A stretch of 64,000 nt of DNA from an uncultured bacterium (GCA_903857865.1 CAIOGO010000020.1:43064-107063), one strand, 5' to 3'; positions 1,456 to 53,517 are shown, numbered from the stretch's first letter. Numbers and translations are program-made. The notes: generated by a model from the letters alone, not told the origin.

Positions 1456-2838
1456 CTACTTGTGCACCCGGCGCAGGAACTCCTCGATCTCGGGCATGCC
1501 GCCCTGGAAGATGAGGTACCCGTCGTGCGGTTCGCGCTCGGTGATCTCGCCGGCGATCGGTGTCAACATCAGTTCGCGCACGCGTTCGAGGTCGCTCGTT
1601 TGGCCGAGGGCCCACGCAAGCTTGATGTAGGCGACCTCGGGGAGCATGTTCTCGGTGGGGATGATGCCCTTCGCCATCAGGTCGCGCCCGGTGTCGTAGA
1701 CGAACATGTGGACGTAGCCCCACAGGGTTTGCACGGTCATGTAGATGGCCACGCCAGCGGCCACGGCGCGCTCGATGGCGGGATAGACGGGTTTGTTGAT
1801 GTGCCCGAGCCCTGTCCCGGCGATGACGATGCCCTTGTACCCGTGCTCGACGAGCGAGTCGATGATGTCGGGATGCATGTTGGGGTAGTAGTAGGTCAGC
1901 GTCACCCGCTCTTCGAAGAAGGGCAGGATGTCGACGTGCCGGTCGGCGCGGCGGTGCGCGTAGTCCTGGCGCAGCGGCTTGACCCCGTCGCGCGTGACGG
2001 TGGCGAGCGGGATGTCGCCGACGGTGCGGAAGGTCGAGCGGTAGGACGAGTGCATCTTGCGGACGCGTGTCGCGCGGTGCAGCAGGCCGTACTCGTCTGA
2101 GGTCGGGCCGAACATGCACACCATGACCTCGGCGATGTCCGACGTCGCGGCCGTGGTCGTGGCGTGGATGAGATTCCGCGCCGCGTCCGACGACGGGCGG
2201 TCGGCCGACCGCTGCGAGCCGACCATGACGATCGGCACCGGCGAGTGCTGCACCATGAACGCAAGCGCGCTCGCGGTGTGGTGCATCGTGTCCGTCCCGT
2301 GGCCGATGACGATGCCGTCGATTCCGTTCTCGATCTCGCGGCCGATCGCCTTGGCGAGCTCGATGTACTGCGACGGCCCCATGTTCTCGGAGAAGACAGC
2401 GAACAGCTTCTCGGTCGAGAGGTTGCAGATGTCGGCCAGCTCCGGGACGGCGCCGTACAGCTCGCCGGGCGAGAACGCGGGGATCACCGCGCCGGTTCGA
2501 TAGTCGAGACGCGACGCGATCGTCCCTCCCGTGCCGAGGAGCTTGACGTTGGGCTTGTCTGGCGATGTCGGGAACTCCTTCTCTGGGATCTTGTAGTGCG
2601 CTTCGCGGCGGCCCAGTTCCTGGATCGCGCGGATCGTGCGCACGTCGATGCCGACGTTGTAGCCCGTGGCGAGCTTGAGGACGAGGTGGCGCGAGTCGTC
2701 GAATTCGGAGCGCGGGAGCACGATCCCGCGGAAGTGGCCGCGCGTCGACTCGACATCGACGTCGCTCCAGACCCCCACCTGGAATCGCGTTAGGACGTCG
2801 AGAGCCTCGCCCTTGTAGCCCTTGTGGGCGTCGCTCAT
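1456..2838 (-). CDS. gatD: Glu-tRNA(Gln) amidotransferase subunit D (asparaginase-domain, archaeal type)
   Basis: Asparaginase signatures LLGTGGTIAS and GIVIGHGTDTM; ATG at 2838 overlaps upstream gatE stop as ATGA; ORF track extends 7 codons further to GTG at 2859. Confidence 0.8.
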   Translation of the reverse strand: MSDAHKGYKGEALDVLTRFQVGVWSDVDVESTRGHFRGIVLPRSEFDDSRHLVLKLATGYNVGIDVRTIRAIQELGRREAHYKIPEKEFPTSPDKPNVKLLGTGGTIASRLDYRTGAVIPAFSPGELYGAVPELADICNLSTEKLFAVFSENMGPSQYIELAKAIGREIENGIDGIVIGHGTDTMHHTASALAFMVQHSPVPIVMVGSQRSADRPSSDAARNLIHATTTAATSDIAEVMVCMFGPTSDEYGLLHRATRVRKMHSSYRSTFRTVGDIPLATVTRDGVKPLRQDYAHRRADRHVDILPFFEERVTLTYYYPNMHPDIIDSLVEHGYKGIVIAGTGLGHINKPVYPAIERAVAAGVAIYMTVQTLWGYVHMFVYDTGRDLMAKGIIPTENMLPEVAYIKLAWALGQTSDLERVRELMLTPIAGEITEREPHDGYLIFQGGMPEIEEFLRRVHK

Positions 2839-4775
2839 CGTGTCGCCTCCTCGACCCACGCCGCGGTGTCGCGGAGCGGGACGTTGCCCATCGCGAGCGG
2901 GCGGATGCAGCCCATCAACGCGCGAACGCGCGCTTCCGGTTCAGGATGGCGAGCGACGAACGCCTTGGCGCAACGAGCGATCTGCGCGCGGATCTCCTTC
3001 GGCGTCGCCTTTCGGTAGCCGACGCGGCCGAGAAGGTCGTCGAACGTCGCGGCCGGCTCGAGAAGCGCAAGCGGCACGAGGAGTCGCAGGATCTCACGAG
3101 TAAGGTCGCGCTCTGCCGCCTCGACGATGACCCAGCGCACGCGCTCGACGTCGATCTCGCGGGCGCCCATGGCGTGCCGGACGTTGTGGCCGAGGAGCGT
3201 TGCCGCGAACGCGGAATCGACCTTGCGCTCGACGAGCCAGGCGAGGGTCGGCGATAGGTCGCGGCGGAGGATGTAGGCGTGCACGTCCTCGGGAGCGCTC
3301 CAGGCGCGGAGCGCCGCCATCCGGCGATCGACGGACTCCGGCAGGCGGGCGCGCGTTCGCTCGATCGCCTCTTCCTCGATCGGGATCGGCGCGGAGTCGG
3401 TGTCGGGGTACATGCGGTCCGGACCCGGCAGCACCCGCTCGAAGATCGTCGTCCCGTTGGGAAGCCCCTTGCGTGTCTCGTTGGGTACGCCTTGGAACGC
3501 GAGGCGGCACCGCTCGACGAGCGTGTCGACGGCGGTCGGGAGGTCAGCCGCCGGGCCCCAAACGAGGACGACTCCGTCATTCGACTTCGCGCCAACACGG
3601 ATCGCCAGCGTCCGCCACGCGGCGGGCGAGATGGCCGAGGCGGGTTGGTCGGGGTGGGCGAGATTCGGCACCGCGATGCAGGCCACAACCTTCAGTCGAT
3701 CGGAGAACTCGTCGGCGAACGTGCGCCCCGGGTTGGTGAAGAACGACAGGAGGCCGCCGAAGCGCGGCAGCCGAAAGATCACCGCGGACGCTGTTGACGG
3801 GACGATGCCGTCGACGAGATGGCGATCCGCATCGCCGAGGGGGACGTGCGTCGCCGTCCACGCGGTGGGGGCGCTCACGCGTCGCCGGAGCTCATCGCGG
3901 ATGAGCAGAAGAGCCTTCTGACGGAACGCCTCATTGTGCGTCAGCTCGGGGATCCAGCGGATGTGTTGCACACCCTTGATCTCGACTCGGGTCCCGCCCT
4001 CGACGCTGACGTTGACGTCCTCGCGCGCGGCGCCGATGCCCACGTTGACGTGCCGCGTGCTGCGCGCAAGGTAGCGAATGTAGTTCGCCGCTTCGGCCGC
4101 CTCGTCCGGGGTCAGAAGCTCGGGCTCCGTCACCGTCTCGATGAGCGGCATGCCGAGGCGATCGGTCGTGTAGGTTCGCTCGTGCCCCACGTCGCTCACC
4201 TCGCGGCACGAGTCCTCTTCGACGCTCAGCTGACGCACGCCGACGCGCTTGCCGGCGACGGGCAGATGGCCGTCGATGCCGATGATCGCCGTGCGCTGGA
4301 ATCCGGTGGGGATGCTGCCATCCAGGTACTGCTTCCGCGCGATGTGGAGCTCGCCGACGATGCTCGTGTTGAGGAGCAGGGCGACCTCGATCGCAATGTC
4401 GATGGCCTGTCGGTTGACGGCGAACGGCGGGGTATCGTCGATGTCGTACGTGCACGCCGTCTCGCCCTTGATGCGGTAGATGATATTCTTCTTGGTCTTG
4501 TACTCCATGAGCGCCGTGCCGTCGTACTCGCCCAGTTCGCTCAGCGTTGGGCGCATGTGGCGGACAAGTTGGGCGTCGTAGTCGTCGCCGTCCTGGTAGT
4601 GCCCGGCCGGGCAGCGGCAGAAGAGCTTCTTCGTCGTGCGGAGTTGCTGGTGCACCTCGAGCCCGCAGCGGAACCCGAGCGTGCGGTAGGTTTCCTGCGT
4701 CGCCTCGGCGCGGCGGACGTAGCCGAGGAGATTGTGGCTGTCCGGATTCTCGGAGATCGCGTCGTCCTTCTTCAT
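2835..4775 (-). CDS. gatE: Glu-tRNA(Gln) amidotransferase subunit E (GatB/E catalytic domain plus AspRS-like insertion domain)
   Basis: GLEVHQQL motif near N-terminus, long insertion domain, translationally coupled to gatD; start set at MKKDD (aa 36 of track ORF 2835..4880). Confidence 0.8.
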   Translation of the reverse strand: MKKDDAISENPDSHNLLGYVRRAEATQETYRTLGFRCGLEVHQQLRTTKKLFCRCPAGHYQDGDDYDAQLVRHMRPTLSELGEYDGTALMEYKTKKNIIYRIKGETACTYDIDDTPPFAVNRQAIDIAIEVALLLNTSIVGELHIARKQYLDGSIPTGFQRTAIIGIDGHLPVAGKRVGVRQLSVEEDSCREVSDVGHERTYTTDRLGMPLIETVTEPELLTPDEAAEAANYIRYLARSTRHVNVGIGAAREDVNVSVEGGTRVEIKGVQHIRWIPELTHNEAFRQKALLLIRDELRRRVSAPTAWTATHVPLGDADRHLVDGIVPSTASAVIFRLPRFGGLLSFFTNPGRTFADEFSDRLKVVACIAVPNLAHPDQPASAISPAAWRTLAIRVGAKSNDGVVLVWGPAADLPTAVDTLVERCRLAFQGVPNETRKGLPNGTTIFERVLPGPDRMYPDTDSAPIPIEEEAIERTRARLPESVDRRMAALRAWSAPEDVHAYILRRDLSPTLAWLVERKVDSAFAATLLGHNVRHAMGAREIDVERVRWVIVEAAERDLTREILRLLVPLALLEPAATFDDLLGRVGYRKATPKEIRAQIARCAKAFVARHPEPEARVRALMGCIRPLAMGNVPLRDTAAWVEEATR

Positions 4776-4874
4776 GATGGTCCGCGCAGGACGGACGCGA
4801 GTTCGTCTCGGCCGGTCGCGCGCCGGAGGAAAGGATAGATGCAGACAGCGTCCGCCGCAAGGTTCGCACAGTGC

Positions 4875-4902
4875 TTGCATTGGAAGTGCGGCTCGGTATA
4901 CT
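4875..4902 (+). promoter_or_regulatory. Sigma-70-like promoter (TTGCAT-16 nt-TATACT) for the plus-strand small-ORF/GNAT/ABC operon, divergent from gatE
   Basis: Hexamers TTGCAT (4875-4880) and TATACT (4897-4902) read directly in the sequence; same -10 hexamer recurs at two other operon heads in this window. Confidence 0.45.
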
Positions 4903-7986: not shown

Positions 7987-9761
7987 GCCCGCTCGCGGCC
8001 TTCGTCCGTCTGATCCGCTTCCGGCCCTGGCTCTACGCCGCGGACGCCGTGGCCTGGTCGGCCATCATGCTGACCGAGCTCGGCGCCGGCTACGTGGCCA
8101 AGCTCTTCTTTGACTCGATCACGGGCAACGCGGCGGCTGGCCTGACGCTCGCGTCAGTCGTCGCCCTTGTGGCCGGCGCGGGGCTCGCCCGCATCGTCTC
8201 GATCCTCGCGGGGGCCCTGATCGACATCCGACACCGATTCTCGATCCGCGTTCTTCTGCAGCGCAATTTGCTCGCCTCGGTGCTCGCTAAGCCCGGCGCC
8301 CGCGCCCTCCCCGGCGCCGTCGGGGAGGCGCTCAACACCGTGCGCGACGACGTCGAGGTCGTCGAGAACCTCCTCAGTTGGCTGATCGACCAGTTCTCGT
8401 TCGTGTCTTATTGCGCGGTTGCGCTGGCCATCCTGCTCAGCATCGATGCGCGCGTGACGCTGGTCGTCGTGCTTCCGCTCGTCCTGGTCCTCATCGGCGC
8501 CCGCGCCGTCTCCAAGCGAGTTCGCCGGTTCCGAGAGGCGAGCCGCGCCGCGACCGAGCGCGTCACCGGGGCGATTGGCGAGGCGATGGACGGCGTTCAG
8601 GCGATCCAGCTCGCCGGCGCGGAGGAGCACGTGGTCGCGCACATCGAGGGGCTGAACCGCGTGAGGCTGCGCGCCGCCGTTCGCGACCGCCTGTTGTCGC
8701 AGTCGTTCCACTCGTTCTTCTGGAACGCGGCAACGCTCTCGACCGGCCTGATCCTTCTGGCAGCCGCGGACGGTCTGCGGAGCGGAACGTTCACGGTCGG
8801 CGACTTCGCCCTCTTCGTCACCTACGTCGGCGTCCTCACCGAGGTGATTGCCGCGTTCGGCGACTTCCTCATCCACTTCCAGCAGGCGAAGGTGTCGCTC
8901 GAGCGTATGGCCGCGCTCATCGAGGGCACGCGCGCCGACGTCGTGGCGCACCACCCGATTCATCTGACGGGGCCGCTTCCCGACGCCGCCGATGCGACCG
9001 GCCCCCCTGAGCCCCTGGAACGCCTCACGGTCGAGGAAATGACCGTTCGCCCCGCCCCGGCCGGCGACTTCTCGCTCGATCGCGCCTCGTTTTCGATCGC
9101 GCGGGGTGAGTTCGTCGTGGTGACCGGCCGGATCGGCGCCGGGAAGTCCACCCTGGTACGCGGTTTGCTCGGCCTCCTCCCCATCGAAGGGGGGCGCATT
9201 CTGTGGAATGGACAGGTTGTCGTGGATCCGGGCTCGTTCTTCGTCCCGCCCCGCTGCGCCTACACGCCCCAGGTCCCTCGGCTGTTCAGCGAGAGCCTAC
9301 GCGACAACCTGCTCCTGGGGCAGGAGGTTGCCCAGGGCGATCTCGACGGCGCCGTCCGCCTCGCTGTGCTCGAGGACGACATCGCACGGTTTGAGAACGG
9401 CCTCGACACGATCGTTGGACCCCGCGGGGTCAAGCTTTCCGGCGGTCAGCGCCAACGCGCGGCGGCGGCGAGGATGTTCCTGCCGAATCCGGAGCTCATG
9501 GTGCTCGACGACGTGTCGAGCGCGCTCGACGTCGAGACCGAGCGGGCGCTGTGGCAACGCGCGACTGCCCTTTCCGGCCGGACGTGGCTTGTGGTGTCCC
9601 ACCGACGTCCAGTGCTGCGGCGCGCGGACCGCATCCTCGTCCTGAAGGATGGGCGGATCGACGCCGAAGGTACGCTCGACGAGCTCCTCGCCACGAGCGA
9701 CGAGATGCGTCGACTTTGGCACGGCGAGGCCGGCGGCGAGGCGGAAGCGGCGGGAGAGTGA
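7983..9761 (+). CDS. ABC exporter, fused permease/ATP-binding protein (heterodimer partner 2)
   Basis: TM domain then Walker [10 protein letters not shown], signature LSGGQRQR, Walker [10 protein letters not shown]; start overlaps upstream stop as GTGA. Confidence 0.85.
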
Positions 9762-9862
9762 CGCGCATCACGTTCATCTAGTCCCGAATTGACTTTCCGC
9801 GTTCCCGCGTGTAGCCTCGTCGCGGGGAAAGGGGAGGGGCCGCGCGCGGAGGTGCGCAAGCA

Positions 9863-10630
9863 ATGAACAACACGTTCGTGATGTGGCTCGTTGGCGCCGC
9901 CATCGCGGGCTTAGGCCTTCTCCTGCTCCTCGGAACGCCCGCCGGCGTCTCAACGGAGGCCGCGGGCTCTTCCGCACTCACAGCGAATGGCGCGTCTCCC
10001 GCATCGGAAACGACCTACTGGAAAGACGCAACGCCTGCATCGATCGCCACGGCCCCGACGGCCCTGCTCCTGGCGGCGCCTACAGCGTGCCCATCCTGCG
10101 GGACCGTATCCATGCACGCCAACACCGCTGCGACTCTTGCGGCCCCTGCGCCGTGCTCGTCGTGTGCGGTCACGTCTTCGCGGGCAACCGTCGTTGCATC
10201 GTTGCCGGTCGGCAGCTGCGCCGCTGCGGTTCCGCAAAGGGGGCTGGCCGGGGGATGTGGCCTGTCGATCGCTCCGTGCGCCGAGACCCCGTGCCGCGCG
10301 TTGACCGCCTCCTGCAACCTCGCTTGCGGACCCGAAGTCCCGTGCCGAGACCGCCCCGGGATCAACCGGAACGGCCCGATGTGCGTGGACGAGTGTTCGT
10401 TCGTGCAGCTCTACTCGACGGTCCCTCTGCCCGCCTGCAGCGCGATTCACTTCGCGTGGGCAGCCACTCGAGGTCAATTCCTCGACCCGGCGGCGCCCGA
10501 CCCGATCTACTATGCGCCCGGATCGGCGTTTCCCGGAGGAGAGGACGTCCTCGTCACGCTGACCGTAACGGATGCGCAGGGCAACGAGTACTCCGACCAG
10601 ATCAAACTGCACGTCAACAACTCGCGGTAG
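9863..10630 (+). CDS. Cysteine-rich (20 Cys) secreted or membrane-anchored protein with C-terminal beta-sandwich-like segment, unknown function
   Basis: Hydrophobic N-terminus MWLVGAAIAGLGLLLLLG; G/C-rich third positions unlike the Arg-rich overlapping frames; multiple CxxC/CxC spacings. Confidence 0.6.
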   Translation: MNNTFVMWLVGAAIAGLGLLLLLGTPAGVSTEAAGSSALTANGASPASETTYWKDATPASIATAPTALLLAAPTACPSCGTVSMHANTAATLAAPAPCSSCAVTSSRATVVASLPVGSCAAAVPQRGLAGGCGLSIAPCAETPCRALTASCNLACGPEVPCRDRPGINRNGPMCVDECSFVQLYSTVPLPACSAIHFAWAATRGQFLDPAAPDPIYYAPGSAFPGGEDVLVTLTVTDAQGNEYSDQIKLHVNNSR

Positions 10631-21185: not shown

Positions 21186-22421
21186 TCAGTTCTTCACAAA
21201 GGCCAGAACTGCGTTCTGTCCGCCGAATCCGAACGAGTTGGAGAGCGCGACGCGGATCGGAAGCGCGGTCGGGACCGGCGTGTAGTCGAGATCGCAGTTG
21301 GGATCGGGGGTCTCGTAGTTCCTCGTGGCGGGGATGAATCCGTTCTCCATGGAGAGGAGCGTCGCGATCGCCTCGACGCCCCCCGCCGCCCCGAGCAGGT
21401 GCCCGATTTGGGACTTGGTCGAGCTGATCTTCGTCCGCGCCGCGGCCGCCCCAAACGCCCGCTTGATGGCCACGGTCTCAATCCGATCGTTCGGCTCGGT
21501 CGACGTCCCGTGCGCGTTGATGTAGTCAACGTCCGACGGGGAGACGTCGGCCTGCCGGAGCGCAAGCTCGATCGCGCGGCGCGCACCGTCGCCGTCCTCG
21601 GCGGGCGACGTGATGTGGAACGCGTCGGAGGTCATGCCGAACCCGGCAAGCTCGGCGTAGATCCTGGCGCCTCGGGCGACGGCCCGATCGTAGTCCTCCA
21701 GCACGACGAACCCCGCGCCTTCGCCCATCACGAACCCGTCGCGGTCCAGATCAAACGGACGGGACGCGCGCTCCGGCTCGTCGTTGCGCTTGGAGACCGC
21801 ACCGATGCGCGCGAAGCCGGCGAACGTGATCCGCAGCAGAACCGCCTCGGCTCCGCCCGCCAGCGCAGCATCCGCGATCCCGGACGATACGAGGTGCGCA
21901 GCCAATCCGATGGCGTGAGCGCCGCTCGCACAGGCAGAGACGATGCCGAAGCTTGCGCCCCGAAAGCCGTGCCGAATCGAGATCTCGCCCGCGAGGGCGT
22001 TCGGCATGAGGCTCGTCACGAAGAAGGGGCTGACGCGCCGCGGCCCACGGTCGAGCATCTCGCGGAAGTTGATCTCGAAGGTTTCCATCCCCCCGATCCC
22101 CGTTCCAGAGATCACGGCGATCCGGTCGGGATCGTAGTCGGCGGCAGCGAAGCGCGCGTCCTCGAGCGCCAAGGACGAGGCGGCGAGCGCGAACTGCGTG
22201 GAGCGGTCGATGCGGCGCGCGTGCTTCGCGTCGACGTAGACCAAGGGATCGAAGTCGCGCACCGGGGCTCCGATCTTCACATCGATGCCGTCGAGGTCAA
22301 CCAAGTCGTCGACACGACAGACGCCACTGCGGCCCGAGCGCAGGCCGTCCCAGAACGCGCTCTTCCCAATCCCGATCGGCGTGACCGGCCCGAGCCCGGT
22401 GACCGCCACGCGTCTAGTCAT
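21186..22421 (-). CDS. fabF: 3-oxoacyl-[ACP] synthase II
   Basis: KAS fold with active-site SACASGAHAIG, HGTST, GHLLGAAG, SFGFGGQNA. Confidence 0.9.
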   Translation of the reverse strand: MTRRVAVTGLGPVTPIGIGKSAFWDGLRSGRSGVCRVDDLVDLDGIDVKIGAPVRDFDPLVYVDAKHARRIDRSTQFALAASSLALEDARFAAADYDPDRIAVISGTGIGGMETFEINFREMLDRGPRRVSPFFVTSLMPNALAGEISIRHGFRGASFGIVSACASGAHAIGLAAHLVSSGIADAALAGGAEAVLLRITFAGFARIGAVSKRNDEPERASRPFDLDRDGFVMGEGAGFVVLEDYDRAVARGARIYAELAGFGMTSDAFHITSPAEDGDGARRAIELALRQADVSPSDVDYINAHGTSTEPNDRIETVAIKRAFGAAAARTKISSTKSQIGHLLGAAGGVEAIATLLSMENGFIPATRNYETPDPNCDLDYTPVPTALPIRVALSNSFGFGGQNAVLAFVKN

Positions 22422-22785
22422 GGCTTCCCGCCACCTTCTCGAGCAGCCTCAGACGGGCCCGCGCCGCCTCTCGCTCCGCGTCCGAGCCCACGGCGCCCGT
22501 AGCGCGGCGCCGAGCGGCCGCGAGATCGATCTCCTCGCGCGGCACGATCTCGGAGCCAAGAATGACGATCCGGTCGCCCTCTACCGCCAAGGTTCCCCCG
22601 AAACAGGCGAACTGCCTCTCCCCCGATGCCGTCTGGATTCGAACCGGACCCGCCGCGAGTTCAGCCAACAGCGGGGCATGATGCGGCAAGACCGCGAACT
22701 CCCCTCTCGGACTGCGCGCCGTCACCGAGGTGGTCTCCCCTTCGAAGAACGTCCGGTCCGGCGAGCGAAGCTGACAATGCAGCAT
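22414..22785 (-). CDS. atpC: F-type ATP synthase epsilon-subunit-like protein (orphan copy)
   Basis: Pattern GEFAVLPHHAPLLAEL...GPVRI...GGTLAV and Ala/Arg-rich C-terminal helix matches AtpC; start taken at MLHCQL; no other atp genes adjacent. Confidence 0.65.
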   Translation of the reverse strand: MLHCQLRSPDRTFFEGETTSVTARSPRGEFAVLPHHAPLLAELAAGPVRIQTASGERQFACFGGTLAVEGDRIVILGSEIVPREEIDLAAARRRATGAVGSDAEREAARARLRLLEKVAGSHD

Positions 22786-22798
22786 GGCACCCCCTTCG

Positions 22799-23485
22799 TC
22801 ACGCAGCGGACGTGGACTCGTCAAGTCCGGACAAGATGTCCGCCGTCCGACTCGCCCCGATGCGCGACGCGCCCGCCTGGATCATGGCAATGGCCGTCGC
22901 CGTGTCGCGGATCCCGCCGGCAGCTTTCACGCCCACCTTGGGACCCACGACGCGCCGCAACAGAGCCACATCGGCCGTCGTCGCTCCCGCAGATCCAAAT
23001 CCCGTCGAGGTCTTGACGTAGTCGGCTCCGGCCTGCACCGCCAGCTCTGCGCCCTTCCTCTTCTCATCATCGGTCAAGAAGCAGGTTTCGAGGATGACCT
23101 TGACCACCACTGGACGTCCGGCCCGCCGCGCCACGACGCAGACCGCAGCCACGTCCGCACGGACCGCCTCGAAGTCGCCCTCCTTCAGAGCCCCGACGGG
23201 AATCACCATGTCGATCTCATCGGCCCCACAGGTCACCGCTTGCTGTGCCTCGAACGCCTTCACTGCGGCCGTCGTCATCCCCTGAGGGAAGCCGACGACG
23301 ACGCACAGCTTGACAGGGCTCCCGACCAGCCGTTCGCGGGCAAGGCCGGCATGCCGGAGGTCGACGCACACGGCGGTCACACCCAGCTGTACGGCTTCCG
23401 CGCACAATCGCTCGACGCCGTCACACGTCGCCGTCGGGCCGAGGAGCGTGTGGTCGATGTACGATGCAAGTTCGGATCTCTTCAT
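22799..23485 (-). CDS. deoC: Deoxyribose-phosphate aldolase
   Basis: DeoC-like LASYIDHTLL, active-site region YVKTSTGF, GVKAAGGIR; RBS GGGGGAGGA before ATG at 23485. Confidence 0.85.
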   Translation of the reverse strand: MKRSELASYIDHTLLGPTATCDGVERLCAEAVQLGVTAVCVDLRHAGLARERLVGSPVKLCVVVGFPQGMTTAAVKAFEAQQAVTCGADEIDMVIPVGALKEGDFEAVRADVAAVCVVARRAGRPVVVKVILETCFLTDDEKRKGAELAVQAGADYVKTSTGFGSAGATTADVALLRRVVGPKVGVKAAGGIRDTATAIAMIQAGASRIGASRTADILSGLDESTSAA

Positions 23486-23507: not shown

Positions 23508-24368
23508 CTAGCCGTGGCCAAGCGCCGCCCCTCGATCCACTTTCTCGAGGAGTTGAAAGCTTCGCCCTCCCTCGTGGACAAGGCCCACGAGAAGATACCC
23601 GGTCCCGAGCAGCTGTTCGAACACCTCGCGAGTCCCGGCACGCCATCGCCTGGCTTCGGCTGGATTCTCGTCGCGAAGGAGGTCGACATCGACGGGGATC
23701 TCAACGAGCACCTTCGCGAAACCCGGCTCGAGCTTGACGTCGACGAGAAAACGATGGCCGGAGGAGGTCGCCGTCGTGCGGGTCGCGACAGCCATCTCGT
23801 GGAGCCTCACTCGTGCGTGAGACGCGGGTCGGCCCTCCTCGAGAAGGGCCAGCGTTCGCGGAGAACGCAGCCACCACTCCACATCCACGCGATCGGTGGC
23901 CAGGCCGCGATTCGCACTGTCGGATAACTCTCCGAAGACGTTGCGCTCGTAGGTCGTTCCAATGGCACCGGCTTTGTTCCAGAGGAGGTGAGACTCTTGG
24001 CTGCGGAGCGGATCGACCCACGCGCGGACGACGTCGATCCCCTCTTCCTGTGCGAACCGGCGTTCAGCCTCCCGCAGAGAAGAGCCGACTCCCCGGTTCC
24101 TCGCCTCGGGCGATACGCCGAAGACGTGCGAGAAGAGCGCTCCGAACCCCTCCCACGTCGACGAGAGATCCACAATGGCCCCAGCGAGTTCGCGCGTCGC
24201 TGTCCCGGACCTGACACCCAGGAGGAGTCCTCCGCTCTCCGCGACAGCCCGCAACGAGGGGACCGAAAGGACCGACGCGGAGGCACGATCTCCGAACAGG
24301 CGACGCTGTAGGCGCTCGCACGCCGCGAGGTCGTCTAGCGTCCGCAGGCGCTCAACGGCGATAGTCAT
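23508..24368 (-). CDS. Hypothetical protein (possible acyl-CoA N-acyltransferase fold)
   Basis: Coding-like codon bias; RNRGVGSSL resembles a GNAT CoA-binding loop; no firm family assignment. Confidence 0.5.
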   Translation of the reverse strand: MTIAVERLRTLDDLAACERLQRRLFGDRASASVLSVPSLRAVAESGGLLLGVRSGTATRELAGAIVDLSSTWEGFGALFSHVFGVSPEARNRGVGSSLREAERRFAQEEGIDVVRAWVDPLRSQESHLLWNKAGAIGTTYERNVFGELSDSANRGLATDRVDVEWWLRSPRTLALLEEGRPASHARVRLHEMAVATRTTATSSGHRFLVDVKLEPGFAKVLVEIPVDVDLLRDENPAEARRWRAGTREVFEQLLGTGYLLVGLVHEGGRSFQLLEKVDRGAALGHG

Positions 24369-27111
24369 CGGGTTGCTCGACGTGACGGCCTCGCTTGTCC
24401 GCGTATAGACGCCGGTCGGCCTCTTCGAGGATCGCTTCCAGAGAGCGTTTTTCTCGCGGCTGGCGGGTGTAGATCCCGATGCTCAGGCCGAGGGGGATCT
24501 CGCCGACGCCCGTCCGGCGAGGCAGATGCGTCATCTGCTCTCGTAGCCGAGAGGCAACGAGCGCGGCTTCGCTCTCCCCGGTTTCCGGCATGAAAATGAG
24601 GAACTCGTCGCCGCCGTAACGGATGACCCCATCAGATGCACGAACCTGGTCGAGGAGGACGCGCGACATCTCCTGGAGAACCTCGTCGCCCTTGAGGTGG
24701 CCGAAGCGGTTGTTCACGGCGCGGAAGTTGTCGACATCGATCATCATGACAGTGAACGGACGCGCGTAGCGATCGCTTCTCGAAAGCTCGGGAGCAATGA
24801 TCGAGTTGAAGTAGTGGCGATTGAACAGGCCGGTCAGCGGATCGCGGACCGCCTGTTCGCGCAGCGACTGCTGCGACGAGAGGTTGGCGAGCGCCGTGGC
24901 GAGATGGTTCGCAATCACCTCGAGGAGGACCCGATCCTCGTCGTCAAAGAAGCTCGGCTGAGGGCTCTCGATGTTGAGCACGCCGACAAGCTGGGCGGCG
25001 AACAGCAAGGGTACAGCGATCTCGGAACGCGTGCCCGGGAGGGCCTCGAAGTAGCGCGGATCCGAGCTGACGTCGTTGACCAGGGCGAATCGTCGGTTGC
25101 GTGCGACCCACGAGACGATGCCCTTTTCAGCCGGAAGCGTCCAGCCTGTCCCTACACCACGCTCGGGGTACGGGCCGCGCAAGCCGGCGACCGAGAGTCG
25201 ACCGTCCTTCCCGTGCAGAAAGACGGACGCGAGAGGGTAGTTGAACGGCTCAGCGAGGAAATCGAGCGCGCTCGCGACAATCTGATCGACGCTCGTTGCC
25301 TCAGAGACCCGCTGCCCCAGAGCGTAGATGCGCGAGAACGCCTCACGCCGTTCGAGCGCCGACAGGGCGATCGAGAGCTGGCTCGCAACGGAGGAGAGAA
25401 CCGCGAGATCCTGCTCGCCGAACGCGGCGAGGCGCTCGGACTCGACGTCAAGGACTCCGCGGACCCCCTTACGACCGCGGATGGGGATTGCGGCCACGGA
25501 TCGAATGGACGCGCGGGACCCGCGGTAGCGCGGGTCCGACGAGACGTCGTCGACCACGACGGGCTCAAGGTAGCGGACGACCCATCGCGTCAGCCCTTCA
25601 CCCTCCACCGGCCCTCGCGAGCCCCGCGCTGGCATCTCATCGCGGTGGAACGCCTTGCTGGCCGTGGCGCCCCCCAGGACAAGCGAGTCGCCCTCTCGCA
25701 GCCAGACGGCGGAGTAGTCGTAGCCCATGTCGTCGCAGACCCGGAGGGTAGCGGCATCGCACAGTTCCGTTGCCAACCGGATGTGTGCGATCTGGTCGCC
25801 AAAACGCGACAGGCCGTGGAGTCGCTCGTTCTGGACACGCAACTGGTTCAGCTTGTACACCCGCTCGACGGCGAGGGCCGCGAAGCTCGCCAGGTGCGCA
25901 ATCGGCTCGATCGACGCCAACGTGGGCGCGTTCTGGTCTATCGGATCGTCGACCGAGATGCAGCCGACGATGCCCGCCGTCCCGCGCAGAGGGATGAAGA
26001 GGAAGTCATCGACGTGCCATCCTTCCATCGACACCGTCCCGATGATCCCCAAGTTCTGCTCCCATGGGACTCGGTCGTGAGGTATGTAGTAGGCGGGACC
26101 CAGCCGGAACTCGTCCGAGAACGCCTTGCGCCGGTTGGCCGGCGAGAAGTGGCCTTGCTCGAGGAGCGTCCGCCGATCCTCTGGCGACAGCCCCGAGCAG
26201 AGCGTCTTGGCGACCTCGCCATCGATCGGAGAGGGAGCCAAGAGGTCGTAGAGGCTGAGTACGGCTCTACGGAAGCCGCTGTACTCCGTGATCGTGTCGA
26301 GCACGAGTTGGAGGATCCGATCGACATCTTGCTCGCCGAGAATGACCTCGCCGAGCTCGAGAACTACGCGGTGGAGACGGGCGAGCCGCACCTCCGTGGT
26401 CACATCCCGCGCTGTCCCCTCGACGCGTACGCCGCAGCTCGTTTCCATACGCTTCGAGACGATCTCCACGGCGCGCTCTTCTCCGTCCCTAGCGATGAAG
26501 TGGTACGCGCTGGCCTCGCTCGCCGTAGCGCCCTGGAACCTCTCGGAGAGCGCCTCGAGGAGCCTCCGCGCGTCCTGCGGAGCCACGAGATCCTTGACGC
26601 TCATCCCGAGGAGTTCGTCCGCCGAGTACTTCAACGCACTGACCACGTACTCATTGGCGTATGTGAGCCTCTCGCCCTCGACCTCGAACACGCCGATGGG
26701 AGCTTGGTCCATCAGCTGCCGAAACCGCTCGTAGTCCGCATTCCGGGTCCGGCGCTCGCAGGCGCACTGAACCGCAGCGCGCACCGACGACAGCAACGCA
26801 GCTTCGCCGACAGGGAACGGGATCCAGCTTGCGGCTCCGCACCCGTAGGGGGAAACCGCATCGGTCGCGGGGTCCGCCCCATCGATCAGCCCAAGCACAT
26901 CCGCTGCGCCTGACGACAAGCCGACGACATCCCCGAGAGAGTCCATGGCGCTCACGAGGCAGATGACAAGGTCGAACGTCCCAGCACCCTCTCGCCGCCC
27001 GCCCTCCGATGTCTCGACCCTGTACCCAGCTCTCGCCAGACTCCGGGCAAGATCGTTCACTCGTTCGGCATCCCGCCCGACAAGAAGCAGAGATCCTGTA
27101 CATGCCGTCAT
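24352..27111 (-). CDS. Multidomain signalling protein: receiver-like domain, PAS, GAF domains and GGDEF diguanylate cyclase
   Basis: C-terminal GGDEF (RYGGDEFLIF) preceded by GAF/PAS-like segments; N-terminal receiver-like fold with apparent substitutions at usual Asp positions. Confidence 0.8.
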   Translation of the reverse strand: MTACTGSLLLVGRDAERVNDLARSLARAGYRVETSEGGRREGAGTFDLVICLVSAMDSLGDVVGLSSGAADVLGLIDGADPATDAVSPYGCGAASWIPFPVGEAALLSSVRAAVQCACERRTRNADYERFRQLMDQAPIGVFEVEGERLTYANEYVVSALKYSADELLGMSVKDLVAPQDARRLLEALSERFQGATASEASAYHFIARDGEERAVEIVSKRMETSCGVRVEGTARDVTTEVRLARLHRVVLELGEVILGEQDVDRILQLVLDTITEYSGFRRAVLSLYDLLAPSPIDGEVAKTLCSGLSPEDRRTLLEQGHFSPANRRKAFSDEFRLGPAYYIPHDRVPWEQNLGIIGTVSMEGWHVDDFLFIPLRGTAGIVGCISVDDPIDQNAPTLASIEPIAHLASFAALAVERVYKLNQLRVQNERLHGLSRFGDQIAHIRLATELCDAATLRVCDDMGYDYSAVWLREGDSLVLGGATASKAFHRDEMPARGSRGPVEGEGLTRWVVRYLEPVVVDDVSSDPRYRGSRASIRSVAAIPIRGRKGVRGVLDVESERLAAFGEQDLAVLSSVASQLSIALSALERREAFSRIYALGQRVSEATSVDQIVASALDFLAEPFNYPLASVFLHGKDGRLSVAGLRGPYPERGVGTGWTLPAEKGIVSWVARNRRFALVNDVSSDPRYFEALPGTRSEIAVPLLFAAQLVGVLNIESPQPSFFDDEDRVLLEVIANHLATALANLSSQQSLREQAVRDPLTGLFNRHYFNSIIAPELSRSDRYARPFTVMMIDVDNFRAVNNRFGHLKGDEVLQEMSRVLLDQVRASDGVIRYGGDEFLIFMPETGESEAALVASRLREQMTHLPRRTGVGEIPLGLSIGIYTRQPREKRSLEAILEEADRRLYADKRGRHVEQPDDYRR

Positions 27112-36110: not shown

Positions 36111-36181
36111 TGGGAGATCGTTCAATGGCAGGACAGCAGGCTCTGGCCCTGTTAATGGGGGTTCGAATCCTCCTCTCCCAA
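36111..36181 (+). tRNA. tRNA-Gln (anticodon CUG)
   Basis: Manual fold: 7-bp acceptor TGGGAGA/TCTCCCA, D-arm GTTC-AATGGCA-GGAC, anticodon arm GCAGG-CTCTGGC-CCTGT with CTG centred after U33, T-arm GGGGG-TTCGAAT-CCTCC; no encoded CCA. Confidence 0.85.
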
Positions 36182-39848: not shown

Positions 39849-40958
39849 TCAGCCTTCGGGGGATAGGTCCGTTCTAGGGTCGGTCTTCGCGAGGGCGGCC
39901 TCGAGTTCGCCGAGGAGCTCGGCGATGAGGTCCTTGACCGAGACGATCTTGTCGATCCGGTGGGCGTTCTGCCCACAGAAGACGAGGCCGTGGTCCACGT
40001 CTCCCCGACAGGCGTTCAGAAGGGCCTGGGCGATGCAGAACTTGGCCTCCGCGACCTTGCAGGCGGTCAGGCAATGGTACGGGCAATGGACCTGCGGAGG
40101 GTCCGCCTTCTCGAGGTCTACTAGAAACTTGTTCCGGATGGCGCGCCCAGGGAGACCGACGGGGCTCTTGATGATGACAATGTCCTCTTCCCTGGCGTCG
40201 AGATAGGTCTGCTTAAAGGCTTTGGCGGCATCACACTCCCAGGTGCAGACGAATCTCGTGGCCATCTGGACTCCGGATGCGCCAAGCCGCAGCATGCGGG
40301 CGATGTCGTGCCCGTCGTAGATGCCCCCAGCGGCGATGACCGGGATCGCCTTACCGTGGCGCTCTTCGTAAGGCTTCACGGTCTCTAGCACCTGGGGCAC
40401 GAGGGTCTCGAGTGCGAAGTCCTCCACATGCTGGAGTTCATCGCGGGAGAATCCGAGGTGTCCTCCTGCGAGGGGGCCCTCGAGGATGAAAGCGTCGGCG
40501 GTCCTCTCGTAGCGCTTCGCCCAAGCGCGAAGGATCAGGTCTGCGGCGCGAGCTGAGCTGACGATGGGAACGAGGTTCACCGAGGGGTCCGGGACCATCT
40601 CGGGCAGCCGCATCGGAAGACCTGCGCCAAAGACAATCATCTTGATGCCTTCTTCGACGGCCGTCTCCACAAGAACCTCGACGTTCCTGACTGCGCCCAT
40701 GAAGTTGACCGCGAGGATCCCCTGGGTCATGGATCGTGCCTTGCGGATCTCCGCCCGCAAGGCCTCGCAGGAGACGCGCTCGTAGTCCCGCGCGCCCCGC
40801 TCGAGATCGCCGAGCCCGATGCTGGAGATCGTGCCGATGCCGCCTTCCTCAGCCACTGCCGCAGCGAGGGACGCCATCGAGATCCTGACCCCCATCCCCC
40901 CTTGGACGATGGGGATATCGGCAATGAGGTCTCCGATACGAAGCTTTGGGATGCTCAT
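39849..40958 (-). CDS. Enoyl-[ACP] reductase FabK-like / nitronate monooxygenase family flavoprotein
   Basis: IVQGGMG N-terminal motif, AAGGI.DG FMN-binding region; RBS AAGGAAGAGAGG before ATG at 40958; ATGA overlap with upstream KAS gene. Confidence 0.8.
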   Translation of the reverse strand: MSIPKLRIGDLIADIPIVQGGMGVRISMASLAAAVAEEGGIGTISSIGLGDLERGARDYERVSCEALRAEIRKARSMTQGILAVNFMGAVRNVEVLVETAVEEGIKMIVFGAGLPMRLPEMVPDPSVNLVPIVSSARAADLILRAWAKRYERTADAFILEGPLAGGHLGFSRDELQHVEDFALETLVPQVLETVKPYEERHGKAIPVIAAGGIYDGHDIARMLRLGASGVQMATRFVCTWECDAAKAFKQTYLDAREEDIVIIKSPVGLPGRAIRNKFLVDLEKADPPQVHCPYHCLTACKVAEAKFCIAQALLNACRGDVDHGLVFCGQNAHRIDKIVSVKDLIAELLGELEAALAKTDPRTDLSPEG

Positions 40959-42262
40959 AGGCACCTCTCTTCCTTGAATCGCCTGACGACGAGGCAGGCG
41001 TTCCCGCCGCCGAAGCCGAACGACTGGGTCATCGCGACGTCGGGCTCGGTGAGCTCGGCTCCTTGGGTCACGTAGTCCAGGGGGCAATCCGGATCCGCTC
41101 GCTCATAGTTGATCGTCGAAGGGATCCAGCCGGTGGAGATACTCAGCACGGTGGCCGCGAACTCGACCGCCCCGGCCGCGGCGAGCAGGTGGCCGATCAT
41201 CGACTTGATCGAGCTGATCTTGAGTTTCGTGGCGTGGACTCCGAAGAGCCTCATCACCGCCGCGCTTTCGATCTTGTCGTTCAACACGGTGGACGTACCG
41301 TGGGCATTGATGTAGTCGACGTCCGTGGGGGCAACGCCGGCGTCGCGCAGCGCTCCCTGCATCGCGCGGAGCATGCCGTCGCCGTCGGGCTCCGGCGCGG
41401 TGATGTGGAACGCATCGGCCGTGTTGCCGTAACCCGTCAACTCAGCGTAGATCGGCGCCTGACGTCCGAGCGCGTGGTCGAGCCTCTCCAACACGACCAC
41501 ACCGGCTCCCTCGCCCATGACGAACCCATCGCGGTCCTTGTCGAACGGGCGGCTGGCGTGTTCGACATCGTCATTTCTGGTGGACATTGACCGTGTCCCG
41601 CAAAAACTGCCAAAAGGCAGCGGGCTCACACTGGCCTCCGCCCCTCCGGCCAGCATGATGTCGGCGTCGCCCCTTTCGAGGATGCGGTACGCATCGCCGA
41701 TGGCGTTCGCCCCGGTGGAGCAAGCAACGGACGGCGCGGACAGAGGGCCCTTCAGGCCATGGGTGATGGACACCATGCACGCAGCGGTGTTGATGAGGAC
41801 TTTGGTGACGACGAAGGGGCCCAGAGCGCGCGGGCCCTTCGCCAAGAGCTGGGCGTGTTCGGTCTCGATGGTCTGCGTGCCGCCGATGCCCGAGCCGATG
41901 ATCACACCTGCCCGGCACCTGTCGTAGTCCGCCCCCTGCAGGCGGGCATCCCGCATGGCCAGGTCCGCGGCCACAAGGGCGAACTGCGTGAACCGGTCCA
42001 CGCGTCGGGCAACCTTCTCGTCAAGCCAGTCTTCGGCACGGAAGTCCTTCACCTCTCCAGCCATCTGCGATCGATAGGCGGCCGGATCGAACAGGGTCAC
42101 GCGTGAAATGCCGTTTTGTCCGGCGAGCAGCTTCTCCCAGAAGGCCTCACGCCCTATGCCGATGGGGGTTGCGACGCCGATGCCGGTCACGACCACCCGA
42201 TGTCGCTGCAGGACGCGAGCCTCCCCACGGCCGCTCACCGATCCCAACCCCCCGACCCGCAA
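40955..42262 (-). CDS. 3-oxoacyl-[ACP] synthase II paralog
   Basis: KAS motifs VACSTGANAIG, HGTST, GHLLAAAG, SFGFGGGNA; true start probably an internal GTG a few codons in. Confidence 0.85.
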   Translation of the reverse strand: MRVGGLGSVSGRGEARVLQRHRVVVTGIGVATPIGIGREAFWEKLLAGQNGISRVTLFDPAAYRSQMAGEVKDFRAEDWLDEKVARRVDRFTQFALVAADLAMRDARLQGADYDRCRAGVIIGSGIGGTQTIETEHAQLLAKGPRALGPFVVTKVLINTAACMVSITHGLKGPLSAPSVACSTGANAIGDAYRILERGDADIMLAGGAEASVSPLPFGSFCGTRSMSTRNDDVEHASRPFDKDRDGFVMGEGAGVVVLERLDHALGRQAPIYAELTGYGNTADAFHITAPEPDGDGMLRAMQGALRDAGVAPTDVDYINAHGTSTVLNDKIESAAVMRLFGVHATKLKISSIKSMIGHLLAAAGAVEFAATVLSISTGWIPSTINYERADPDCPLDYVTQGAELTEPDVAMTQSFGFGGGNACLVVRRFKEERCL

Positions 42263-50634: not shown

Positions 50635-53517
50635 GTGACGGTGCCCGAGGTCCGCGTCTACCTGTTCGGATACCCGCGTGTGGAGAGCCGAGGCAATCCC
50701 GTGTCCATTCCGCGGCGCAAGGCCCTTGCCCTGCTCGCGTACCTCAGCGTCACGCAGTCTCACCACAGCCGCGACGTGCTCGCTTCCCTGTTGTGGCCGG
50801 AAGAAGAGAGCGCCAAGTCGTACGCGTTCCTGCGGAATGCACTCTGGGTGCTGCATCAGACTCCCGTTGAACCTTGGGTCCTCGCGACACGGCACATGGT
50901 CGGCCTACGTGCCGACGAGGGTCTGTGGGTCGACGTCGCGGAGTTCCGACGTCTCTTGCAGACGTGCCGGCGCCACGCGCACCCCGACTTGGCGCTCAGC
51001 GCTCCGGACGTGGAGGCGCTACGCAGCGCCGTGGATCTCGCCCGCGATGGTTTCCTCGCGGGATTCACCGCCGACGACAGCCGCACATTCGAGGAGTGGC
51101 AGTTCAGCGAGTCCGGCGTCCTCATGCAAGAGCAGGCGCTCGCCCTGGAGAAGCTGAGCGACCACTACGAGGCGGCAGGCGACGTGGATGCGGCCTTGCT
51201 CTACGCACAGCGCCGGCTCGCCGCACAGGCGCTCGACGAGGTTGCCTACCGCAGAGTAATGCGCCTCCTCGCGAGGAGGGGAGATCGAGCCGCGGCTCTC
51301 CGCGCGTTCGAAGACTGCGTTCGGGTACTCGATGTGGAGCTCTCCCTCTCTCCCTCGGAGGAGACGCGCGCGTTGGCGGAGGCCATCCGCTCGCGCCCTT
51401 TCACGGCCGCCGCGCCGAGGACGGCCCCGCGCCGCAGCTTTCCTTCGTACCGCCTGCCTCTGGTGGGTCGCGAGAATGACGTCGCTCGCATCCTCTCCCT
51501 CCTGGACCAAGACGAGTGCCGACTCCTCACGCTCACCGGGACGGGAGGCTCCGGCAAGACGCGCCTCGCCGTGGAGATCGCCGAGCAGGCCACCGACTTC
51601 ACGGACGGAGCTGTGTTCGTCTCGCTCGTCGACATCGAGTCGCCCGCGCTGGTGCCGGCAGCGATCCTCGAAGCCCTCACGGAGACGGTCGAACCCACCG
51701 AGCCCACGGCCTCCGGCGGAGCACCCGGGCGGGCCCTCGAACTCGCCGACCACCTGTCGGACCGCGATCTCCTCGTTGTGTTGGACAACGCCGAGCATCT
51801 GGCGCGTGACGTGAGCTGGCTGGCGGACCTCGTGAACAACACGGAGCGTCCGTGCTTCCTCGTTACGTCTCGGCAAGAGTTGGGCGTGCCGGGGGAGTGG
51901 GTCCACCCCGTCGAGGGTCTGGAGTGTCCCGGCGCCGAGTCGAAGTCCCCTCCGGTGGAGTTCCCCGCAGTGCAGCTCTTTCTACAGGCCGCGCGGCGCG
52001 CCGACGCGCGCTTCACCCCATCTCCCGTAGACCTCACGGCCGTCGCGTCGATCTCCCGGCTTCTTCAAGGGAACCCCCTCGGGATAGAGCTCGCCGCTTC
52101 CTGGGCGAGGGCCATGCCGTGTGCCGACATTGCGACCGAGATCACGAGAAGCGTGGACTTCCTCAAGACCGAGCGGAAGCTCGCTCCGAGGCGCCATCGC
52201 AGCTTGCGCGCTGCGTTCCAGGGATCCTGGGACTTGCTCGATCGCGCCGGGAGGGGCGCGTTCCGCGCGCTGTCCGTGTTCCGTGGCGGCTTCACCGCCG
52301 ACAGCGCGCTTCACGTCTGCGGAGCCACCCTGCCAGTCCTGGCCGCGCTGGTGAGCAAGTCGTTGATCGAGCGAACCCCCGCCGGGCGGTATGAGATGCT
52401 CGAAGTCGTGCGCGAGTACGCCAACGAACGGTTGCGCGCGCTCCCGGAAGAGACCGCCGACATCCAGGACAAGCACGCCGACTACTTCCTTGCCCTTCTC
52501 GCGAGTCAGGAGAGTCGACTCAAGCGCTCCGGGCAGGGGGAGGCCCTCATCCTCCTCGCGACCGACGAGGCGAACTTGTACGCCGCGTGGCGACGAGCCG
52601 CCAGTCAAGGCGCGACGGAGGAATTGGCGCGCGGCGCGATGGGACTCTTCCTCTTCTGCGACATGACGACGCGTTTCGCCCAAGGTGCCAGTCTCTTCCG
52701 ATTGGCCGCCGATGCCGCCGCAGGCGCTCCCCGGAAAGAAGGACGGGCGCGGCTCGCGACCTTCCGTGGCCTCGAGGCCTGGTTCACCGCGTTCGCCGAC
52801 CCCGCCGAGGCGGCCGAACGATTCCAGGAGAGCATAGATGTCGCAGCCAAGCTTGATCTCAACAGCGACCTGGCCTTCGTTCGCGTCCTCATTGCGTTCG
52901 CAGGGAATCGGCGTGCCCCGTCCACGCCGCGGGCGAACGTCGAGGATGCGCTTCGCTTCTTCGAGGAGCGCGAACTCGCCTGGGAGACTGCCACGGCCTG
53001 CGATGCGCTGGCCCTGATTCAGGTGACGCCTGCTGCGGCTCTTGCCTTGGTCGAGCGGAGCATCGCGATGCGCGAGACCCTCGGCGACCTTTGGGGCGTT
53101 GCGCTGGGACGCTTCTCGAGAGCTGTCATACTCGCAGAGATGGGTGAATTCGAGCAGGCTCGCGCGGAACTTCAGCTCAGCGCCGAGCTCCGTGAGAACC
53201 TCGAACTTGACCCGCACGGCCTCTGCGGCTGCTATCTCGAGATGGGCGCGGTCGAAAGCAAGCTCGGCCACCTCGAGGAGAGCGCACAGGACTTCGAGAA
53301 GGCGCTCGAAATCGCTGCACGCATCCGCAGCCCATTCGTCGAGGGCAAGGCTCACGAGGGACTTGCCCGGCTCGAGTTCGAGCGCGGCCGTTCGAGCAGT
53401 GCGCGCCAGCATGTTGACCGCGCGGTCGAGTGCTACGAGGCGGCACACCGCGTGGACGACGCGCTCCGAGTGCGTCAACTCATTTCCGAGACGCCGCGTC
53501 GGCGAAAGACAGGTTGA
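50635..53517 (+). CDS. AfsR/SARP-like regulator: BTAD winged-helix domain, NB-ARC-type ATPase, TPR repeats
   Basis: N-terminal RKALALLAYL...LLWPE, Walker A GTGGSGKTRLA, Walker B LLVVLDNAEH, C-terminal helical repeats. Confidence 0.8.
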   Translation: MTVPEVRVYLFGYPRVESRGNPVSIPRRKALALLAYLSVTQSHHSRDVLASLLWPEEESAKSYAFLRNALWVLHQTPVEPWVLATRHMVGLRADEGLWVDVAEFRRLLQTCRRHAHPDLALSAPDVEALRSAVDLARDGFLAGFTADDSRTFEEWQFSESGVLMQEQALALEKLSDHYEAAGDVDAALLYAQRRLAAQALDEVAYRRVMRLLARRGDRAAALRAFEDCVRVLDVELSLSPSEETRALAEAIRSRPFTAAAPRTAPRRSFPSYRLPLVGRENDVARILSLLDQDECRLLTLTGTGGSGKTRLAVEIAEQATDFTDGAVFVSLVDIESPALVPAAILEALTETVEPTEPTASGGAPGRALELADHLSDRDLLVVLDNAEHLARDVSWLADLVNNTERPCFLVTSRQELGVPGEWVHPVEGLECPGAESKSPPVEFPAVQLFLQAARRADARFTPSPVDLTAVASISRLLQGNPLGIELAASWARAMPCADIATEITRSVDFLKTERKLAPRRHRSLRAAFQGSWDLLDRAGRGAFRALSVFRGGFTADSALHVCGATLPVLAALVSKSLIERTPAGRYEMLEVVREYANERLRALPEETADIQDKHADYFLALLASQESRLKRSGQGEALILLATDEANLYAAWRRAASQGATEELARGAMGLFLFCDMTTRFAQGASLFRLAADAAAGAPRKEGRARLATFRGLEAWFTAFADPAEAAERFQESIDVAAKLDLNSDLAFVRVLIAFAGNRRAPSTPRANVEDALRFFEERELAWETATACDALALIQVTPAAALALVERSIAMRETLGDLWGVALGRFSRAVILAEMGEFEQARAELQLSAELRENLELDPHGLCGCYLEMGAVESKLGHLEESAQDFEKALEIAARIRSPFVEGKAHEGLARLEFERGRSSSARQHVDRAVECYEAAHRVDDALRVRQLISETPRRRKTG

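Follow-up and report, generated by a model that had tools for sequence, protein, structure and literature searches.

Epsilon subunits and the arrangement of their genes

In typical bacteria the epsilon subunit of the F1Fo ATP synthase (AtpC) is a protein of 130-140 amino acids (aa), recognized by the families PF02823, PF00401 and TIGR01216 and represented by structures from Caldalkalibacillus thermarum TA2.A1 (2QE7, 5HKK), Bacillus PS3 (2E5Y) and Escherichia coli (1AQT), and its gene follows atpD. Short epsilons are found in actinobacteria such as Mycobacterium smegmatis and M. tuberculosis (121 aa; 7JG5, 8J0S, 5YIO), where the C-terminal hairpin is reduced and the gene is the last of the atp operon. 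The enzyme can also be assembled from more than one locus: in cyanobacteria and chloroplasts an atpB-atpE pair lies apart from the main operon, and in Aquifex aeolicus the atp genes are distributed over several loci, but in these split sets the epsilon gene stays beside that of the beta subunit (atpD). The subject of this report is an epsilon-like gene that lies between deoC and fabF in a stretch of 64,000 nucleotides (nt) from an uncultured bacterium (GCA_903857865.1 CAIOGO010000020.1:43064-107063), to which in its entirety we refer as "the window". We consider it probable that this gene is the sole atpC of its genome, relocated away from the other atp genes, rather than an extra paralog.

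The likeness to the described epsilons is in the protein and the difference is in the location of the gene. With typical bacterial AtpC the window protein shares, in its predicted structure, the two-domain fold in its compact "down" form of the hairpin and the GE...GHAPLL core, whereas at 123 aa it is shorter in its first helix and the following loop, and its gene is not preceded by atpD. The mycobacterial epsilons are similar to it in length and in their reduced hairpin (Foldseek identity 30-35%, template modelling (TM) score 0.77-0.84), but they close an atp operon. The nearest operon-encoded relative for which the context was checked (P0056, 40% identity) likewise closes a full atpIBEFHAGDC operon, the neighbours of which, on our own reading, resemble those of actinobacterial atp operons. 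The epsilon of the N-type F1Fo ATPases (TIGR03166) exhibits the weak homology that any epsilon would have, and the window protein is not a member of this family (24.8 bits against a cutoff of 100.1); no N-ATPase gene cluster was found within the 64-kb window. Relative to the split atp sets described above, the arrangement proposed here would share the supply of one enzyme from more than one locus and would differ in that epsilon alone is detached and apparently coupled to an unrelated gene. A literature search on orphan atpC genes returned no specific description of such a case.

The epsilon gene and its junctions

The gene and the elements at its two borders are as follows.

22414..22785, minus strand: atpC-like gene for an F1 epsilon subunit of 123 aa, with its ATG at 22785 and a TAG stop codon at 22414-22416
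22786..22798, minus strand: deoC-atpC spacer of 13 nt, in which direct reading of the sequence places a Shine-Dalgarno-like AAGGGGG 5-6 nt ahead of the atpC ATG
22414..22421, minus strand: atpC/fabF overlap of 8 nt, ATGACTAG, containing the fabF start codon and the epsilon stop codon
22422..22440, minus strand: Shine-Dalgarno-like element for fabF within the terminal codons of epsilon (GAGAAGGTGGCGGGAAGCC, translated as EKVAGS), likewise read from the sequence

The initial annotation had described an AtpC-like gene, 13 nt after deoC and overlapping the start of fabF by 8 nt, with no other atp genes adjacent to it, and each of these observations was borne out. The stop codon of deoC occupies 22799-22801 and the fabF ATG 22421-22419, which gives the 13-nt spacer and the 8-nt overlap, and both neighbours had been correctly named (see below). 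A six-frame translation of the window contained no Walker motifs of the F1 alpha/beta or V-type A kind, tblastn with atpA, atpB, atpD, atpE, atpF, atpG and atpH gave no match in it, and Pfam recognized no ATPase families among the ~47 of its open reading frames (ORFs) that were scanned.

The exact epsilon protein was found on 11 metagenome contigs (up to 0.2-1 Mb), on which deoC is also called as a 228-aa gene, and a protein search retrieved close homologs in more than 50 clusters. These homologs and contigs, together with the ratio of nonsynonymous to synonymous substitution (dN/dS) and the AlphaFold confidence given below, place the ORF far from a chance ORF; it is a real, conserved gene for an F1 epsilon subunit. 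A longer ORF of 136 aa with a TTG start at 22824 was considered and rejected on the grounds that it overlaps deoC, that the homologs all begin with MLHCQLRS, and that the position of the ribosome-binding site favours the ATG. A scan of the deoC-atpC-fabF string for promoters and terminators yielded nothing above shuffled sequences and no internal terminator. Because of this result and the short spacer, atpC may well be co-transcribed with deoC and fabF.

Gene order across the Bipolaricaulota

The contig belongs to the Bipolaricaulota (Acetothermia). All of the named homologs of its epsilon are from "Candidatus Bipolaricaulota" or "Acetothermia", and NCBI as well as JGI annotate them as ATP synthase epsilon (at NCBI, "F0F1 ATP synthase subunit epsilon"). 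Throughout ~30 distinct Bipolaricaulota loci, which span a G+C content of 47-67% and identities down to ~42%, the gene immediately upstream of fabF is in every case epsilon. The usual order, which holds to identities of 42-46%, is (GGDEF) - 286-aa protein - deoC - epsilon - fabF, followed downstream by pheS in convergent orientation. The members of this string in the window, other than epsilon itself, are:

24352..27111, minus strand: PAS-GAF-GAF-GGDEF protein of 919 aa by Pfam, the head of the string, overlapping the next gene by 17 nt at its 3' end
23508..24368, minus strand: conserved protein of 286 aa with weak or borderline GNAT matches only
22799..23485, minus strand: deoC, deoxyribose-phosphate aldolase of 228 aa, directly upstream of epsilon (TIGR00126, 248 bits against a cutoff of 117)
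21186..22421, minus strand: fabF, beta-ketoacyl-acyl carrier protein (ACP) synthase II (KAS II) of 411 aa, directly downstream of epsilon (TIGR03150, 550 bits against a cutoff of 494; PF00109 and PF02801)

The generality of this arrangement was assessed by scanning a single genome from each GTDB species with one peptide pattern, combined with tblastn; the counts cover the matches listed. All 12 loci of the Bipolaricaulota type have epsilon directly upstream of fabF. In other phyla epsilon comes directly after atpD in 57 of the 68 loci; for five of the remainder the fetched sequence stops short of where atpD would lie, and six (L031, L043, L046, L047, L057 and L062) gave no atpD match at E<=1e-5. 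Among the matches listed, neither the protein search nor the pattern-limited genome scan produced an atpD-linked epsilon under a Bipolaricaulota name, and no Bipolaricaulota sequence among them exhibited a second epsilon. No atp genes were found near the fabF-linked epsilon in the fetched Bipolaricaulota loci by motif, tblastn or Pfam.

The part of the string that varies least is the junction between epsilon and fabF. The 286-aa protein is present in all Bipolaricaulota loci that reach far enough upstream, except L014, L034 and L016 (321 aa in the last of these). In L026, from a UBA9294 genome, a gene of 245 aa (9219-9956; recO-like as judged by eye) stands between deoC and epsilon, and in L034, from an Oman "type II" metagenome-assembled genome (MAG), an unrelated gene of 262 aa (8965-9753) takes the place of deoC; both loci keep the epsilon-fabF junction. 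Epsilon is also present in two loci looked up through their FabF (L102 and L104) and in the metagenome locus L107, the only relevant one from a metagenome scan with a Bipolaricaulis FabF that was dominated by unrelated FabFs. The overlap has the form ATGnnTAG in all 12 of the epsilon-fabF junctions that were read, across the same range of G+C content (47-67%), and in 11 of them, L034 being the exception, a Shine-Dalgarno-like AAGGAG, GGGAAG or GAGGG lies within the 3' end of epsilon, 4-10 nt before the fabF ATG. A G-rich element of the same kind stands 5-8 nt ahead of the epsilon ATG wherever the start has been correctly called (10/10 loci); none was seen in L016 and L019, for which the epsilon start calls are truncated.

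A ribosome-binding site within the end of one gene and a start codon that lies just ahead of its stop codon are features by which the translation of fabF would be coupled to the termination of epsilon. From here one could go further and suppose that the sole epsilon has an added role, whereby its coupling to fabF ties the supply of epsilon, and with it the assembly or regulation of the ATP synthase, to membrane lipid synthesis. The constancy of the overlap and of the ribosome-binding sites over so broad a range of base composition would agree with such a role, as would the survival of the junction when deoC is replaced (L034) or followed by an inserted gene (L026). However, conserved gene overlaps are common and require no functional link between the products. 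Moreover, the window contains a second fabF beside a fabK-like gene, and lipid synthesis may therefore not depend mainly on the epsilon-linked copy. We regard the added role as unlikely.

The second fabF, at 40955-42262 on the minus strand, scores 565 bits with TIGR03150 and is 53% identical to the epsilon-linked fabF; the window thus encodes two KAS II paralogs. By its ORF coordinates it adjoins and overlaps a nitronate-monooxygenase/FabK-like gene (39849-41087, minus strand; TIGR03151, 173 bits, under the cutoff).

Two further observations concern the loci of the survey. A seven-gene cluster that resembles the Mrp/Mnh-type cation/proton antiporters (MNHE, MrpF, PhaG, MbhD, MnhB, Oxidored_q2 and Proton_antipo_M) is located downstream of a PKD-domain gene in L013 (14883-19358), L014, L016, L101 and L102; the window has no such cluster at the equivalent position. 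The loci L021, L023, L027-L030 and L032, which are of the Bipolaricaulota type, come from public MAGs titled "uncultured Thermotogae bacterium", which looks like a taxonomy-label artefact of the submissions.

The epsilon protein

The assignment to epsilon made by the initial annotation is supported by domain, profile and structure comparisons. Residues 2-77 of the window protein match the 80-position model of PF02823 (ATP-synt_DE_N) with E=8.2e-19 and 67.8 bits, against a cutoff of 27, and 20 NCBIfam epsilon models match it as well. A profile of the 22-member family matches 43 distinct PDB sequences, all of which are bacterial or chloroplast epsilon or mitochondrial delta subunits; the best of these matches (E=3e-22) extends over positions 5-115 of 122 and includes the helical tail. 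AlphaFold predicts, with a mean predicted local distance difference test (pLDDT) score of 94.2 and a predicted TM score (pTM) of 0.85, a beta-sandwich of 10 strands at residues 2-82 (strand pLDDT >95), followed by helices at 88-97 and 102-119 that pack in the model as they do in compact epsilon. Foldseek returned epsilon and delta subunits only, with TM scores of 0.80-0.84 to the epsilons of Acinetobacter, Caldalkalibacillus thermarum, Bacillus PS3 and E. coli.

Conserved residues of the family form a core, GE(F)..(G/H)HAPLLA, where G28, F30 and H36-A41 are invariant in the alignment of the 22 members and E29 is conserved in at least 90% of them. In an alignment of type II, UBA9294, operon-encoded actinobacterial-type and E. 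coli epsilons, G28, E29, H36, A37, P38 and L39 are invariant, and the counterparts of E29 and H36 in the E. coli protein are E31 and H38. We take these two to be the classic positions of cross-linking and contact with the c-ring and gamma. On the basis of the fold and of these contact residues, the beta-sandwich would dock on gamma and the c-ring and so couple rotation, while the short two-helix hairpin at the C-terminus would modulate ATPase activity, as the usual regulatory element. ATP-binding epsilons have the motif (I/L)DxxRA; the corresponding stretch of the window protein reads IDLAAARRRA and does not keep their spacing.

The dN/dS of epsilon against five orthologs is 0.22-0.44, compared with 0.08-0.20 for fabF and 0.14-0.23 for deoC, all of these values being rough because dS is near saturation. 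As judged from these comparisons of coding sequence, epsilon is under purifying selection that is weaker than that on fabF or deoC.

ATP synthase content of the relatives and loss of the gene

If the fabF-linked gene is the only atpC of its genome, its presence might be expected to follow the presence of an F-type ATP synthase. According to Colman et al., the Oman MAGs of type II have F-type ATP synthases and those of "type I" have V-type ATPases (PMC9586279), and the type II MAG NSHQ14.2015.Bin1, with a G+C content of 46.9%, is the source of L034 and thus carries the fabF-linked epsilon. Three Bipolaricaulota MAGs from Lost City, in none of which an A-type ATPase is present (PMC9469722), extend the comparison. 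MAG-1207, of the order UBA7950, has the F-type subunits a, b, c, alpha, beta, delta and gamma (Table S5, PMC9469722), epsilon being the only one of the eight F-type subunits that is undetected in the KEGG Orthology (KO) table (PMC9469722). For MAG-1260, of the family UBA9294, the subunits recorded are a, c, alpha, delta and gamma, again with epsilon not detected (PMC9469722); the GTDB representative of UBA9294 is the genome of L026, where a fabF-linked epsilon is present. In MAG-1503 (Bipolaricaulaceae, genus UBA3574), the G+C content of which (65.7%) compares with 65.6% for the window, the subunits a, c, alpha, beta, delta, epsilon and gamma are all recorded (PMC9469722). Sequence divergence was rejected as the cause of the negative KO calls for epsilon, since orthologs from the UBA7950 order pass TIGR01216 (72-79 bits); the calls may fit a gene that lies off the operon contigs of incomplete bins.

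The converse case is provided by the genus Bipolaricaulis, whose closed Ca. Bipolaricaulis anaerobius genome, according to Hao et al., encodes no conventional ATP synthase (PMC6092417). A search with the window FabF led, through a FabF of "Candidatus Bipolaricaulis sp." (P0167), to the locus L101 (GCA_028713255.1, JAQTOR010000024.1, 4436-6485), from which epsilon is absent. This locus retains the order Era - GGDEF - 303-aa protein - deoC - fabF - pheS, with a fabF of 417 aa that has its own start, and the deoC-fabF spacer of 124 nt contains no epsilon remnant. The loss of epsilon from L101 matches the absence of ATP synthase reported for the type genome of this genus. For that closed genome (Ran1) the supplementary tables give deoC as BARAN1_v2_0436 but contain neither fabF nor the tags of the genes around deoC, and none of the epsilon or FabF matches listed falls on a contig longer than 1 Mb, so that Ran1 is not among them.

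Epsilon is thus present where an F-type ATPase has been reported, absent in a genus reported to lack one, and unaccompanied by a second epsilon in the matches listed, and this is the pattern expected of a relocated sole atpC. Under this interpretation atpC would have left its place after atpD in the ancestor of the Bipolaricaulota and become fixed between deoC and fabF, and the other F1Fo genes would be encoded elsewhere in the genome. The initial annotation had named, as the circumstance that would speak against its own proposal of a stand-alone paralog, that this be the only atpC in a genome with a split atp set; the evidence that points to precisely this situation is strong but indirect.

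Several points weigh against relocation of the sole atpC and have kept us from stating it more firmly. An atp operon lacking atpC, and the lack of a second epsilon, are inferred from the loci above and from published tables rather than read from a Bipolaricaulota atp operon, and the genome scan covers the matches listed for one peptide pattern. The negative KO calls in two MAGs may reflect incomplete bins. The loss of epsilon in L101 is tied to the absence of ATP synthase by the name of the genus and not by the same assembly, and the comparison of gene with ATPase type covers lineages reported to have an F-type enzyme or none, not those with V-type enzymes alone (Ca. Acetothermum autotrophicum and type I). 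With the general equivalog model TIGR01216 the window protein scores 65.0 bits, ~2 bits under the cutoff of 67.25, and it has no match to PF00401, the domain of the C-terminal hairpin; among orthologs in the same context L034 (78.8 bits) and L026 (72.1) pass the TIGR01216 cutoff and L102 (60.1) fails it. The phylogeny of epsilons that the initial annotation had proposed as a check came out divided: in a neighbour-joining tree of 87 epsilons the fabF-linked ones do form one bipartition, but bootstrap support for their monophyly is just 22/100.

Some of the same points would suit an independent epsilon-like paralog with no part in the ATP synthase, which might sense ATP by binding it or might interact with FabF or another protein, the synthase having its own epsilon or being absent. 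Such a paralog would account for the shortfall with TIGR01216 and PF00401 and for a junction with fabF that overlaps, and is probably coupled, throughout the phylum, parts of which are reported to have V-type ATPases only, or none. A precedent for a partner outside the ATPase might be seen in 9a4b (9a4b_B), an integrative AbrB-AtpE (epsilon) model that is among the Foldseek matches. The regulatory or moonlighting paralog suggested by the initial annotation nevertheless fares poorly, as every Bipolaricaulota epsilon that we recovered is linked to fabF and none follows atpD. A second epsilon, which the paralog would leave room for, does not appear among the matches listed; the rotor-contact residues are invariant; and orthologs with the same neighbours (L034 and L026) pass the equivalog cutoff. 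In the type II MAG the gene occurs together with an F-type ATPase; it is missing from the one sampled genus whose type genome is without ATP synthase, and corresponds to the sole F-type subunit that went undetected in MAG-1207. An independent paralog is, in our estimation, improbable.

Loss of the F-type ATPase by some members of the phylum also raises the thought that the gene is a functionless relic, decaying after the loss of its enzyme. No locus that carries the gene, however, has a disrupted reading frame, dN/dS lies under 1, the core motifs are invariant and the fold is predicted with high confidence; and where the gene is gone, in L101, it has been cleanly deleted and not left to decay. 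A relic is accordingly the least credible of the explanations considered here, and we judge it extremely unlikely.

A different outcome can be imagined for the Bipolaricaulota that have only V/A-type ATPases, including type I and Ca. Acetothermum autotrophicum, in which two V-ATPases and no F1Fo have been reported (PMC3267732). There, the fabF-linked epsilon might be kept under selection and work without F1Fo. We think this quite doubtful, but if it were true the protein could be, for example, a small ATP-responsive protein held at a fixed ratio to the ketoacyl-ACP synthase, and would represent a subunit recruited to a new job.

Other genes of the window

Three features elsewhere in the window may be recorded here. 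Adjacent genes at 1456-2859 and 2835-4880, both on the minus strand, encode GatD (TIGR02153, 510 bits against a cutoff of 324) and GatE (TIGR00134, 394 bits against a cutoff of 320) of the archaeal-type Glu-tRNA(Gln) amidotransferase. GatDE is considered to be confined to archaea, and its occurrence on a bacterial contig is thus unusual. A tRNA-Gln(CTG) gene is located at 36111-36181. A gene on the plus strand (50635-53517) encodes a BTAD-AAA/NB-ARC-TPR (STAND-type) regulator of 960 aa.

Implications for the Bipolaricaulota

What is known of the ATP synthase itself is unchanged by these observations, which amount to a curiosity of gene order with value for annotation. In genomes of the Bipolaricaulota, epsilon should be looked for beside fabF and not in the atp operon, as otherwise the F-type synthases of the phylum look incomplete, as in the published KO calls of "epsilon: no", or an isolated epsilon gene invites an exotic interpretation. 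The overlap with fabF extends throughout the phylum, and the junction would thus have stayed unchanged from a time before the phylum split into its orders. At this fixed locus, the presence or absence of the gene may serve as a simple marker of whether a given lineage retains an F-type ATP synthase.

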